57,589 bases of DNA from Oscillospiraceae bacterium. GTDB taxonomy: Bacteria; Bacillota; Clostridia; Oscillospirales; CAG-272. Positions 25,489 through 29,057 of the stretch are shown one piece after another. How positions within the stretch are numbered: position 1 is the stretch's first letter; the number at the start of each line of letters is the position of its first letter. Position numbers and translations under genes: made by a program. The stretch is from contig SVSY01000002.1 in the NCBI GenBank assembly GCA_015064065.1, forward strand, positions 1-57,589, read 5' to 3'. Under the pieces are notes generated by a model, which was given only the letters and a program-made list of their open reading frames with translations, searched no databases and was not told the DNA's origin.

Positions 25489-25689
25489 GTTCTCAACGAT
25501 GATCTTCTGCTCGCGCTTGAGTTCCTTCGGTTCACCGAGCGCAAGAGAAAAAACGAGTATTGCAATGGCTGCAACTATAACGAGCAGATAAACGAGTATC
25601 GCCGTTCCCGAAAGCAGAAAATCAAGTGAAAACTTTGCCAAAGCACCCTTCAAAGCAATAGCCGTCACAGGTCCGTTAAAATTTACCAT
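24364..25689 (-). CDS. membrane-anchored McrB-family AAA+ NTPase, copy 2
   Basis: It has a different 67-aa N-terminus with one long hydrophobic segment (LDFLLSGTAILVYLLVIVAAIAILVFSLAL). From SDSARTKE... to the stop it is identical in protein to copy 1 (Walker A at nt 25213-25242). Its ATG shares 1 nt with the upstream TGA (cTGATGg). Confidence 0.7.
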   Translation of the reverse strand: MVNFNGPVTAIALKGALAKFSLDFLLSGTAILVYLLVIVAAIAILVFSLALGEPKELKREQKIIVENASDSARTKETKQEETGERFCMLSEIDRNREKYGAKRYEGVVSLEYMCESFRNYAASELKLYYEIEDIRRFIASMGVSRMLILQGMSGTGKTSLAHAFGVFLDNASVVIPVQPVWKERSDLIGYYNEFTKRFNETLLLEKMYEANYSKDMYVTILDEMNIARVEYYFAEFLSLLELPDPNERYLDVVSDKWESDPVQLIDGRIKLPVNMWFIGTANNDDSTFAISDKVYDRAMVLDLDRKSERFAAPRTEKLHVSAEQFEKMVENAIKEYGVSRRNQKRLESFDRYLAQNYHVTFGNRIMKQIRTYIPVYIACGGEELAALDDILSKKVIRKLEAQNPIYFRNSAEELISYMEELFGADAMPICKDHIHRIMRNA

Positions 25690-28600
25690 CAGTTCTTCTC
25701 CTTAGGATTTTTTACCGTTTTGTTCAACTCGGCAGTCCTTACGGCTCTGCGTGAAGCTTCAGCACCGCTATCTCCGAATATCTTTTCGATCTCGTCACCG
25801 AGTCCCGCGTTAACGTCTTTGGTAAGCACGAGCACCGACGGCAAGATCCTTGCCGCCACAGCTCTGTCAAGAGACTCGTCGGCATCACCGCTGCAAGCGA
25901 CGAACGCAGCCACATATCGCTCCATACTCATCCACTGCTTATTACCTATTGAATACTCGACAAGATCCCCAACGAATGCACAAAGCCTGTCCACCTTCTT
26001 CCAAAGCTCCTCGCCGATCTCGCTTTGTCCGACTTCTCTCTCGCTCATAAATTCAAGCTGATAATACGTCAGCTTATGAACTGCGGTAGGTTCTGCCGCA
26101 GGGGTCACGGCAGTTACTCTGAGCTCTGTTACAGCCGCCGCCTCGGCAACGTCCAACGGAATATCCGCAATAGCGGTATTAGCACTCAAGCCACCGATAA
26201 ACCAGATATTTTCAGAAAATCTGTGCTTTCCTTCAACAGCCGAGATAACGCTGTCGGAATAAGGACTTTTTGCGTATTTTACAATATCGCCAAAGCAATT
26301 TTTCATAGCTTCGCCGTCGAGCTCGGCAAAGGCACAGATATGAAGCTTTTCACGTGCAGCTCTCGCCCCGTCAACTATTCGAAGCGTCTCTGTAGCAACG
26401 GGCTGACCGTTTGCGTCCTTCGTATTGAAGATGCGCGAAGGCGCGGTATAGCTTCCGTCAACTCTATCCAAAGACGCACTGCACTCAAAATATTGTGACA
26501 GCGCGGTTATAAGTCTTTCAAGTTCGCCTTTTTCGAGCCCCTGAATAAGCACGATACGTGACGATGCCATAGCCGAAAGCAGACCGTTTACGCTTACTCG
26601 GTCAAGCTTACAGCCGTGCTCTCTCAAAAAGATCTCAAGCTCTGCTGACACAGTCTCGAACGTAAGCTCCTTATCGACGTGAGCAAAATACTCGTCGTTG
26701 CTGCGCTTTTCCGTTACCGTGACCTCATCTTCGTCGGGCGTATGATCGGCTCCGAACTCGTCTGCAAATATCTTATCCGCATCAAAGCTTTCGAGCTTGG
26801 TCGCATCCTCGAACCATTTTTCATTAGCCTTTGCGGCAGCTTCCTTCTCTTTTTCGCCGATTCTTTTTCTGTCTATCGCCTCAAGAACGAAAAACGCGAT
26901 CGCCACACCGATCATTCCAACGGTAATAACGTTAAGAAATGCAGACACGGTATTTGTTGAAACGCAATATATCTGCAATAATACGGCAAGCAGCAAAAGT
27001 GCCGCTCCGCAAGCAATATTTTTGATAGCCTTTTTCATAACGGGATATCTTGCCTCCAATGTATAATTCTCTGAGATAATGTTCGATTCAGATTGTAGAT
27101 AGCGTGAAAGCGGCTCGTGCGTCGGCGCGAGCACGGCATCCCCTGCTCTCAGCTTCGCACTAAGTCTTATGTCGCTCACCGAAGAGCCTACGTATACGTT
27201 ATATACTCCCTTTTCTGCGACGGCTTTTCCGCTTGCGACGTCAAATACCAACGGCACGGACAGCTTTAACGTTACGTTCTTTGATTGACCCGCCTCAAGA
27301 TATATCTTGTCGAATGCCACAAGCTCCTTCTTGGGACGCAGTGACGAGGACGACTCTATGCCGACGTAAAGCTGTACGACCTCCGCGGCAGCCATTCTTC
27401 CTATATTTTTGAGTGTAAAGGAGACGCTGTCCTCTCCGTTAACACTAAGCGAGGAATAGGCAAACTCGGAATATCCAACGCCGTGCCCAAAGGGATAACC
27501 GATATCCCACTCGGCAGTATCGTAGTATCTGTAGCCTATAAAGCGGCCTGCCTTCGCCCCCATATTCATATATCTCTGCTGCTTTGCAAGCGAGCTATCC
27601 GTGTTTCTGTAAAGCGAATTTGCAAGCTTTCCTGACGGACTGTAGACTCCGCAGACCGCGTCTGCAAGCGCCTCTGCAGAGCCGCGCACGTCGATAGGTG
27701 CGAGGATCAGTGCGCCAAGCTCGTCAAGCGTAGCAACGTCTACGGCATAGTTGCTTGACAGCACGGCAACGGTGTGCTTGGCACAGCTTTGTGCAAGCTT
27801 ACTTGCCAATATATCCTGATTTGCGGGAAGCGAAAGATTTTTAGAGCGAGTTATATACTTTTCGCGCTCCTTATCCGTGCCCGCAAAAAACAACGTAAGG
27901 TCAGCTCTTTTGGCAAGCGCGATAGCCTCTTGAGACAGTTCGGTGCTCGGAAGCTCCGAATCCTTCTCGTACCCCCGCGCAACTCCTATTACGTCAGCTC
28001 CTCTTTTTCGCAAGCTCGCACAAATGCGTTCGACCCAAGCGCTGTCGGATACCGCCGCATCGCCTATCAACGCTACGCTTGCGCTCTTTTGAATGGGAAG
28101 CAGACCGTTCGCATTTTTCAAGAGCACTATCGACTCTCTCGCCGCCTCGGGCGCAAGCTCGTTTACTTTTCGCTCCGCCTCCTGCTCGCCGGCGTATCTC
28201 GGCATAAGCTCCGAAAGGAATGCTATGGTGCGGTCTACTGCGGCATCAAGCATCTCGGGAGATATCGCGTTTCCGCATTCAATATCCTCCAAGAGCTCCT
28301 CGTCCCCCATCTCACCGCGATCAATGGCTTTCTTTATCTTCGTATATTTGTTGAGTGCCGCCTGAAGCGCATATCCCGAGCCTTTCAAGCAAATTATTCC
28401 TTGATTTATATACCGTACCGTATTTTCCGCATTCGCGTTACAGCAAAGTACGGCGACAGCCTCGCCAAGCTTTCCGCCGGCAGCCATTTTCATAAGATCT
28501 TGACTGCGTTCTCCGTATTCCCCCGCAAGCGTTTCTTCTTTTATACAAACGCCTACGTGGCGCTCGGAAAGTGCTTCTATATACGGTCTTGCGACGTACT

Positions 28601-29057
28601 CATAAATAATTCTCTCATCAGGACTTCTGTCAAGCCAAGCAGTCTCGCTCGCACTTATACCAAGCTCCGAAATACACGGTCTGAGTCCACCGCGCTCAGC
28701 GCCGACGGCATAGCTGTTTGCAAGACTTGCGGCAAGACGTACGTCCTCTGAAAGCGCCGTGCCGTACGGGTCGATCTTTATTTTCGCCGCAGGCGTGATA
28801 GCTATCCCGACGCCCTTGGATGCCATATATATTGCCGATGCCTCGCCGACCCTTCTGACAAGCTCGCAATTCCACGAGCCCGCCAAGGCCGCAGGGGACG
28901 GAAAAATATTTTCGGTCATTGAGGCAAGCTCTCCCGCTCTTACGGCAGGTATTCCCATATTTATCAATTCTCTGTCGCTCAAGCCCGAAAGATCGGTGAG
29001 AATATTTATCTTTTCACCTTCACTGAGCCTGTTTACGATACCTTCGTATTTCAGCAT
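25689..29057 (-). CDS. fusion protein: GH3-like domains (apparently non-catalytic) + Fn3-like domain + TM hairpin + degenerate McrB-like AAA+ domain
   Basis: 1122 aa. Residues 1 to about 660 align by eye to family-3 glycoside hydrolases (LSEGEKINIL, FPSPAALAGSWN, LLKNANGLLP, GYPFGHGVGYS, VVQLYV). Two TM helices are encoded at nt ~26875-27030. The C-terminal ~390 aa are paralogous to the neighbouring McrB-like proteins but have a destroyed P-loop (IVLIQGLEKGELERL, nt 26524-26541). Confidence 0.65.
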   Translation of the reverse strand: MLKYEGIVNRLSEGEKINILTDLSGLSDRELINMGIPAVRAGELASMTENIFPSPAALAGSWNCELVRRVGEASAIYMASKGVGIAITPAAKIKIDPYGTALSEDVRLAASLANSYAVGAERGGLRPCISELGISASETAWLDRSPDERIIYEYVARPYIEALSERHVGVCIKEETLAGEYGERSQDLMKMAAGGKLGEAVAVLCCNANAENTVRYINQGIICLKGSGYALQAALNKYTKIKKAIDRGEMGDEELLEDIECGNAISPEMLDAAVDRTIAFLSELMPRYAGEQEAERKVNELAPEAARESIVLLKNANGLLPIQKSASVALIGDAAVSDSAWVERICASLRKRGADVIGVARGYEKDSELPSTELSQEAIALAKRADLTLFFAGTDKEREKYITRSKNLSLPANQDILASKLAQSCAKHTVAVLSSNYAVDVATLDELGALILAPIDVRGSAEALADAVCGVYSPSGKLANSLYRNTDSSLAKQQRYMNMGAKAGRFIGYRYYDTAEWDIGYPFGHGVGYSEFAYSSLSVNGEDSVSFTLKNIGRMAAAEVVQLYVGIESSSSLRPKKELVAFDKIYLEAGQSKNVTLKLSVPLVFDVASGKAVAEKGVYNVYVGSSVSDIRLSAKLRAGDAVLAPTHEPLSRYLQSESNIISENYTLEARYPVMKKAIKNIACGAALLLLAVLLQIYCVSTNTVSAFLNVITVGMIGVAIAFFVLEAIDRKRIGEKEKEAAAKANEKWFEDATKLESFDADKIFADEFGADHTPDEDEVTVTEKRSNDEYFAHVDKELTFETVSAELEIFLREHGCKLDRVSVNGLLSAMASSRIVLIQGLEKGELERLITALSQYFECSASLDRVDGSYTAPSRIFNTKDANGQPVATETLRIVDGARAAREKLHICAFAELDGEAMKNCFGDIVKYAKSPYSDSVISAVEGKHRFSENIWFIGGLSANTAIADIPLDVAEAAAVTELRVTAVTPAAEPTAVHKLTYYQLEFMSEREVGQSEIGEELWKKVDRLCAFVGDLVEYSIGNKQWMSMERYVAAFVACSGDADESLDRAVAARILPSVLVLTKDVNAGLGDEIEKIFGDSGAEASRRAVRTAELNKTVKNPKEKN

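Follow-up and report, generated by a model that had tools for sequence, protein, structure and literature searches.

We analysed a 57,589-nucleotide stretch of DNA from an Oscillospiraceae bacterium (GenBank assembly GCA_015064065.1, contig SVSY01000002.1, positions 1 to 57,589 of the forward strand; hereafter the window). One of its genes, g4, encodes a protein in which a fold of glycoside hydrolase family 3 (GH3) is joined through a transmembrane hairpin to a McrB-like AAA+ domain, and both enzyme modules are catalytically dead by sequence. It would be a rare example of a protein that combines two unrelated dead enzymes and in which selection maintains both. Its gene stands fourth in a row of nine tightly packed minus-strand genes (gaps of 13-63 nucleotides), which also encode two McrB-like GTPases and a McrC-like protein. 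With a probability of roughly 0.55, we consider g4 to serve, without catalysis of its own, as a structural or regulatory part of a McrBC-like GTPase machine anchored in the membrane. A scaffold, stator or platform is the best-supported reading of this subunit.

Architecture of the g4 protein

The gene, from the list of open reading frames and the translation, and its predicted parts are as follows.

25689..29057, minus strand: g4, fusion of GH3 pseudoenzyme, transmembrane hairpin and pseudo-McrB; 1122 residues, ATG start
28158..29057, minus strand: degenerate GH3 N-terminal (beta/alpha)8-like domain, residues 1-300; K-H replaced by S130-E131, nucleophile Asp by C206, Trp by N207
27438..28157, minus strand: GH3 C-terminal alpha/beta sandwich domain, residues 301-540; PF01915, E 5e-26; EGxDR replaced by Y401-I-T-R-S
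27138..27437, minus strand: Fn3-like domain, residues 541-640; PF14310, E 3e-17
27018..27137, minus strand: juxtamembrane linker, family-specific and conserved, residues 641-680; consensus DYLQSESNII..NY.LEA...MKK
26883..27017, minus strand: transmembrane hairpin, two helices (681-699 and 707-725) joined by a 7-residue loop and flanked at either end by basic residues, from hydropathy and charge counts
26673..26882, minus strand: acidic linker, poorly conserved, residues 726-795; low predicted local distance difference test score (pLDDT) in the model
25692..26672, minus strand: pseudo-McrB AAA+ domain, residues 796-1122, lacking Walker A, Walker B, NxxD and the Arg finger

A preliminary description of this DNA had read the first ~660 residues as a GH3 N-domain, C-domain and Fn3-like domain in that order. 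Pfam and phmmer agree with this order, weakly for the N-domain. Pfam places Glyco_hydro_3_C at residues 310-529 and the Fn3-like domain at residues 559-626, and the N-domain family PF00933 gave a sub-threshold match that covers residues 50-121 only (18.9 bits against a cut-off of 27). The best PDB relative by phmmer is C. thermocellum BglB (7ms2, E 1e-56), followed by other three-domain GH3 enzymes. The alignment to 7ms2 spans residues 47-186 and 251-643 and skips the nucleophile stretch; the segment that covers the N-domain (residues 47-186) has a domain E of 1.5e-7. Scores against the NCBIfam GH3 equivalogs were far under their cut-offs (e.g., 199.8 against 1300), and PADLOC returned nothing useful for this protein. 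The domain matches did not arise by chance. At least 145 full-length homologues share the architecture. A gene-fusion artefact was rejected, as the architecture is found across many independent assemblies.

Loss of the GH3 active site

Two alignments were made. In the first, g4 was aligned to 47 homologues that share its architecture plus 21 canonical GH3 proteins; in the second, to 144 full-length family members plus 19 canonical GH3 sequences. At seven catalytic or subsite positions the residue is the same in 19/19 canonical proteins and variable in the 145-member family.

Asp of DGPHG: E in g4, the DGPHG loop being mostly deleted; S, D, Y, R and others in the family
Arg of NIKR: I95 in g4; hydrophobic in the family
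Lys of K-H: S130 in g4; variable in the family
His of K-H: E131 in g4; variable in the family
Nucleophile Asp of SDW: C206 in g4; E, R, K, D, S, L, Q or H in the family
Trp of SDW: N207 in g4; variable in the family
Glu of E-G-x-D-R: Y401 in g4, with G, D and R replaced too (Y401-I-T-R-S); variable in the family

The acid/base Glu was assigned through its invariance in the canonical sequences and not via a numbered structure; the E, G, D and R of its motif are present in 19/19 canonical proteins and replaced throughout the family of g4. The complete K-H-D-E set is carried by 0/145 family members, and the GRNF loop has a four-residue deletion in g4. For orientation, a passage of PMC10851751 that cites Pozzo et al. 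2010 names Asp242 and Glu458 of T. neapolitana Bgl3B as catalytic, and gives Asp58 and Trp243 roles with the substrate.

These alignments bear out the preliminary description, which had read CISEL in place of the K-H motif and AVAVLCCNA in place of the nucleophile motif. Canonical CLKHF aligns with C128-I-S130-E131-L, and canonical VVSDWG with V203-L-C205-C206-N207-A208. Its statement that the GH3-like module lacks catalytic motifs also holds in a proper alignment, where both the nucleophile Asp and the acid/base Glu are absent, and the loss is broader than was described. Orthologues had been suggested as a check, in case they keep the same substitutions. They share the loss of the active site, but the residues that replace it vary.

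The N-terminal 640 residues appear to be a BglB-type GH3 fold from which the whole active site has been lost. With the three-domain BglB-type enzymes (7ms2; T. neapolitana Bgl3B) the module has in common the order of N-domain, C-domain and Fn3-like domain, the lack of a signal peptide, and the fold motifs SED, LLKN..LPL, PANQ, GYRYYDT and PFGHGLSY. It differs from them in lacking the DGPHG loop, the Arg, the K-H pair, the nucleophile Asp, the Trp and EGxDR, and in having an insertion at residues 226-250 and a fusion to the hairpin and the AAA+ domain. In databases, the proteins of this system carry no other labels than 'GH3 C-terminal domain-containing protein', 'beta-glucosidase', 'AAA family ATPase' or 'hypothetical'. 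To call the module a glycosidase misstates its function, and the label inflates the counts of carbohydrate-active enzymes in microbiome surveys.

A residual enzyme, in which the module would hydrolyse a substrate via substitute residues such as C205/C206 at the nucleophile position, is highly improbable. Two cysteines do stand where VVSDW has Ser-Asp. However, this column varies among E, R, K, D, S, L, Q and H in the family, and K-H, Arg, Trp and EGxDR have been lost as well. We rejected Cys206 as a substitute nucleophile because its column is not conserved.

The C-terminal domain is a dead McrB paralogue by its motifs

By BLASTP, residues 735-1122 match the adjoining AAA_5 protein with E 5e-10 and 19% identity over 274 residues. 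A profile of this domain aligned to the profile of the operon's McrB in hhalign with a probability of 99.5% (E 1.2e-22) over 323 columns, reaching the very C-terminus. The AlphaFold2 model of the domain, built from a 39-sequence alignment, has a pLDDT of 88.6 and a predicted template-modelling score (pTM) of 0.82. Its top Foldseek matches in the PDB are McrB chains (6hz4, 6ut6; E ~1e-6, TM-scores 0.3-0.47), and MCM, NorQ, dynein, BchI (1g8p, 6l8d) and RavA come after them. The low TM-scores probably reflect a different orientation of the subdomains.

The Walker A motif of the neighbouring McrB, GMSGTGKTS, is GLEKGELER in g4 (from G840), and its Walker B motif, ILDEMN, is HICAFAEL (from H906). 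GGLSANTA stands at the equivalent of NxxD (sensor 1), and DVAEAAAV at that of the Arg finger. Walker A (GK[ST]), Walker B, NxxD and the Arg finger were found in none of the 39 and 30 family sequences inspected. The domain is thus a paralogue, over its full length, of the McrB-like GTPase encoded in the same operon, and it has lost all nucleotide-handling motifs. With all four of these motifs missing, it is predicted to be dead both within its own subunit and for action on a neighbouring one. The initial view of a dead McrB-like ATPase is confirmed, with the motifs lost in all sequences inspected and a McrB-like fold in hhalign and Foldseek.

Selection on the dead modules

Ratios of nonsynonymous to synonymous substitution (dN/dS) were calculated by the Nei-Gojobori method for moderately diverged pairs of related loci.

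L004-L005: GH3 N-domain 0.15, GH3 C-domain 0.12, Fn3-like domain 0.09, dead AAA+ domain 0.10
L033-L036: GH3 N-domain 0.27, GH3 C-domain 0.27, Fn3-like domain 0.08, dead AAA+ domain 0.33

Both dead modules are kept by purifying selection and are not decaying.

What selection preserves in the GH3-like part is mostly its fold. Of the positions conserved to at least 90%, nearly all are shared with active GH3 proteins (glycines, prolines and the aromatic core). The family-specific conserved features are the insertion at residues 226-250 and the juxtamembrane segment at residues 652-675, and neither of them forms a polar pocket. We also looked in the module for a conserved pair of Cys residues or a newly formed polar pocket and rejected both, since none reaches 65% conservation across the family. 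In one related locus (L009:10001-11413, GCA_045542075.1), the subunit has 470 residues and consists of the juxtamembrane motif, the hairpin and the dead AAA+ domain without any GH3 module, and the operon is otherwise similar. The GH3 module appears to be dispensable in at least this lineage.

These observations bear on the ligand-sensor explanation of the preliminary description, in which a NagZ-like dead GH3 module would bind a cytoplasmic sugar, muropeptide or nucleotide-sugar and allosterically gate the GTPase ring. Pseudoenzymes often serve as binding modules, the fold is under purifying selection, and the module is covalently tied to a ring-type subunit. Yet all seven canonical pocket columns are variable in the family, so the pocket seems not to be kept even as a binding site, and no family-specific polar cluster was found. 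A NagZ ancestry was rejected, as the best matches are three-domain BglB-type enzymes (7ms2) and not the single-domain NagZ. With an unconserved pocket, a BglB-type ancestry and a module that L009 lacks while the rest of its operon is intact, the sensor hypothesis is weak and we regard it as improbable. The word scaffold, offered in the same description, fits better.

Partner genes of the operon

The other genes of the operon and a candidate promoter are listed below. All descriptions of function are predicted.

30563..32065, minus strand: g1, first operon gene, 500-residue membrane protein with a weak CvpA (Colicin_V) match at its N-terminus and a soluble C-terminal domain
29754..30530, minus strand: g2, 258-residue multi-pass membrane protein, conserved upstream partner
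29121..29735, minus strand: g3, 204 residues with a C-terminal transmembrane helix, conserved upstream partner
24364..25689, minus strand: g5, McrB-like GTPase 1, 441 residues with one N-terminal transmembrane helix and intact motifs
22672..24342, minus strand: g6, McrC-like, 556 residues with a DUF2357 N-domain and a ~150-residue helix (348-496)
21232..22641, minus strand: g7, McrB-like GTPase 2, 469 residues with a two-helix transmembrane anchor
18673..21198, minus strand: g8, 841-residue signal-anchored surface protein with repeats and a TgpA-like transglutaminase core
16641..18659, minus strand: g9, 672-residue signal-anchored repeat protein, extracytoplasmic
32148..32176, minus strand: sigma-70-like promoter match, TTGACA-17-TATACT (11/12), ~83 nucleotides upstream of g1

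Aligned with E. coli McrB, g5 and g7 have GMSGTGKT and ILDEMN intact, and N-N-D-D stands opposite N-T-A-D without a gap. Both are of the canonical NxxD type. The earlier claim that the adjacent McrB-like protomers are active agrees with these intact motifs. No DNA-binding domain was found in the N-termini of g5 and g7, which consist of transmembrane helices followed by a short acidic linker and no other domain. The stop codon of g4 overlaps the start codon of g5 by one nucleotide (TGATG, window 25687-25691), which suggests translational coupling of the two genes. This overlap is not retained in L001.

The last 1125 nucleotides of g7 and g5 (21232-22356 and 24364-25488) are 99.7% identical. In L001, L003, L007 and L008, the GTPase domains of the two McrB paralogues are 94-99% identical within a locus and 30-40% different between loci. 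Only the N-terminal anchors of such pairs differ, one having a single transmembrane helix and the other a transmembrane hairpin. This looks like concerted evolution, with gene conversion maintaining a single GTPase domain on both anchors. Identical GTPase domains on two different anchors are a clue to the ring architecture.

The assignment of g6 as McrC-like comes from DUF2357 (PF09823; 25.9 bits against a cut-off of 23.3, E 7e-6), a modest match without structural confirmation. No PD-(D/E)xK nuclease was detected in g6 by Pfam, PADLOC or NCBIfam, and the ~150-residue helix occupies the region that follows the N-domain. Foldseek with the whole g6 model, its sensitivity limited by a pTM of 0.41, gave nothing below E 1, and a profile search of the PDB gave only coiled-coil noise such as apolipoproteins. 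As the structure and profile searches gave nothing usable, the absence of a nuclease rests on negative evidence. The most conserved segment of g6 is residues 74-107, with R74, Q75, F76, I77, G81, E82, V83, I86, E87 and K88 among its invariant positions. It is predicted to be disordered (pLDDT below 50) and would fit a ring-inserting finger that is folded only inside the GTPase ring.

Among solved structures, g8 matches P. aeruginosa TgpA (6g49) best. It retains the Cys and His of the transglutaminase and has Glu at the Asp position. Many related loci (L007, L008 and others) have two TgpA-like transglutaminase genes, with products of 841 to ~1500 residues.

Membrane topology

A hydropathy scan of g4 found no hydrophobic signal-like N-terminal segment and exactly two hydrophobic helices, at residues 681-699 and 707-725 (nucleotides 26883-27017). 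The Lys/Arg counts around the hairpin are 4 in the N-terminal flank, 0 in the 7-residue loop and 5 in the C-terminal flank. By the positive-inside rule, these charges place both large modules, the GH3-like and the dead AAA+, on the cytoplasmic face as predicted from sequence. This placement agrees with the closest active relatives, which are enzymes without signal peptides. All three AAA-type domains of the operon (g4, g5 and g7) come after transmembrane segments with positive-inside flanks, and the GTPase domains of g5 and g7 are predicted to be on the same cytoplasmic face as the g4 modules. The preliminary description had already noted the missing signal peptide, two helices at about 26875-27030 with basic flanks, and a cytoplasmic location of both modules. 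The scan refines the helix boundaries, and the topology prediction agrees with the location.

Distribution and operon variants

Every long related locus that was fetched has the same gene order. The gene for the GH3 pseudoenzyme and dead AAA+ domain lies upstream in 26/27 informative loci mapped by tblastn, and the usual order is this gene followed by McrB, McrC-like, McrB and transglutaminase genes. Four metagenome loci (L039, L042, L043 and L047) lack the first McrB and keep the dead subunit, the McrC-like protein and one active McrB; one active McrB therefore appears to be enough. In these loci the dead-subunit gene is directly upstream of the McrC-like gene, and its motifs are still dead.

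The system is very common in mostly uncultured gut Clostridia. Searches with the dead domain gave 530 representatives at 50% clustering (E ≤ 1e-3), nearly all with ~1100-1200 residues and the domain at ~735-1120. The GTPase gave at least 8000 clusters at 90% identity (E ≤ 1e-10), and the McrC-like protein more than 2000 clusters at 90% identity. The sources are gut, rumen and related metagenomes, and the names given are only Clostridia, Clostridiales, Ruminococcaceae/Oscillospiraceae and Christensenellaceae metagenome-assembled genomes. A locus search with a narrower alignment found three genome loci, all from Clostridia or Christensenellaceae metagenome-assembled genomes. The genomic context of a distant relative, P0070, is cut by the contig end.

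The ancestry of these genes raises the question of anti-phage or anti-plasmid defence. A membrane derivative of McrBC would work through abortive infection or surface exclusion; the double pseudoenzyme would sense the invader or be a decoy for it. The McrB and McrC homologies favour this explanation, as does the match of the g5/g7-type GTPases to the PADLOC defence-candidate model PDC-M26A (E 1e-43), and nuclease-less coiled-coil McrC homologues are known in the defence-related CoCoNuT and CoCoPALM systems (PMC11090510). The dead subunit and the surface proteins also evolve much faster than the GTPase. On the other hand, no nuclease or other toxin domain was detected, and the nine-gene synteny with large surface proteins is rigid. 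The GTPase is unusually well conserved, with 60-69% identity across loci against 23-33% for the dead subunit. In the window, the operon is bordered by housekeeping genes (for an AMP-binding enzyme, 2-oxoacid:ferredoxin oxidoreductase, ABC exporters, RqcH/NFACT and Znu); genes of mobile elements were not seen around the operon loci. No relatives were found among 2.9 million viral contigs, and a phage origin was rejected on this ground. The McrBC ancestry and the PDC-M26A match keep defence in play as a rival explanation, but we consider it unlikely.

Proposed role of the double pseudoenzyme

In the scaffold or stator reading, the dead AAA+ domain of g4 would co-assemble with the active, membrane-tethered McrB paralogues. 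It might take a fixed, non-hydrolysing position in a hetero-hexamer, or it might form a second, BchD-like platform ring. GTP hydrolysis would be stimulated by the highly conserved finger of g6, inserted into the ring as a plug. For the GH3 pseudoenzyme we propose a bulky cytoplasmic scaffold or docking platform and not a sugar sensor. Through the transmembrane anchors, cytoplasmic GTP hydrolysis would be coupled to the way in which the extracytoplasmic transglutaminase-like and repeat proteins are assembled or controlled. A putative transfer of signal from g4 to the active protomers is plausible.

A wider proposal, which we advance only tentatively, is that the operon encodes an unrecognised envelope-spanning, GTP-driven machine of gut Clostridia. 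A membrane-tethered, exapted McrBC motor would assemble, activate or mechanically control surface TgpA-like or adhesin proteins, and the double pseudoenzyme would be its dedicated stator or platform. If true, this would be a clear case of a McrBC motor moved from DNA restriction to the membrane.

Several points weigh against this assignment of g4. The link between the GTPases and the surface proteins is operon membership only, and the coupling step is an inference from it. The interaction, stoichiometry and topology of the subunits are predictions. The McrC assignment of g6 stands on one Pfam match little above its cut-off (25.9 against 23.3 bits), and the E 1e-43 match of the GTPases is to a defence-candidate model. 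A remodelled ligand site may also exist elsewhere on the GH3 fold.

Comparison with known systems

The operon resembles E. coli McrBC (6hz4, 6ut6) in the Walker A, Walker B and NxxD motifs of g5 and g7, in the McrB fold of the g4 C-terminal domain and in the DUF2357 match of g6. It differs in that the g4 domain is nucleotide-blind and the transmembrane anchors of g5 and g7 replace the DNA-binding domains. A further difference is the long coiled coil of g6, in which a PD-(D/E)xK nuclease is not detectable. The operon is a McrBC-derived NTPase system with an unusual dead-enzyme subunit and a plausible non-restriction role.

CoCoPALM and CoCoNuT systems have McrB homologues linked to transmembrane segments and coiled-coil McrC proteins in which the nuclease is missing or inactive (Bell et al., eLife 2024, PMC11090510). 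The same work describes for them an NxD motif that is shortened, a fusion to an FtsB-like part, and partners of the signal-peptidase/pilus or HEPN kind (PMC11090510). The membrane-linked McrB and the coiled-coil, nuclease-less McrC homologue are common to these systems and the present operon. CoCoPALM, of the NxD branch, differs in its motif, as the GTPases of the operon align as NxxD. Neither an FtsB-like fusion nor signal-peptidase/pilus or HEPN partners were found among the nine operon genes and ten flanking genes scanned. GH3 and transglutaminase are not mentioned in PMC11090510 or its supplements. Literature searches for the fusion, the operon, GH3 pseudoenzymes and PDC-M26 gave no description or nothing relevant.

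An architectural analogue of the dead subunit is found in Mg-chelatase. BchD is an inactive AAA+ paralogue that carries an acidic linker to a non-ATPase module and partners the active BchI ring, and it belongs to the same AAA+ clade as McrB. The likeness to g4, an inactive paralogue with an acidic linker and a non-ATPase module beside an active ring, is an analogy only. The fused module of BchD is VWA and not GH3, the protein is soluble and not membrane-anchored, and its function is another one.

TgpA-type genes are linked to MoxR-type AAA+ genes. In the bifidobacterial PFNA cluster, MoxR, DUF58 and transglutaminase genes are linked. Such operons share with the present one an AAA+ protein of a related clade that is linked to a membrane-anchored, extracytoplasmic transglutaminase-like protein. 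They differ in that the ATPase here is McrB-type (AAA_5) with a McrC-like partner, that DUF58/VWA is lacking, and that the double pseudoenzyme is added.

Additional observations

The sigma-70-like sequence upstream of g1 is a consensus match only, and the total number of such matches in the region equals the chance expectation. It faces the divergent gene of an AMP-binding enzyme. The window also holds a full-length RqcH/NFACT gene (10826-12583; NFACT_N, E 4e-131) upstream of two ABC exporter genes, an ordinary chromosomal context. An antisense open reading frame of 325 codons lies inside g4 (27774-28751, plus strand), and similar ones lie inside g5 and g7. These antisense frames are without homology support and are most likely spurious.

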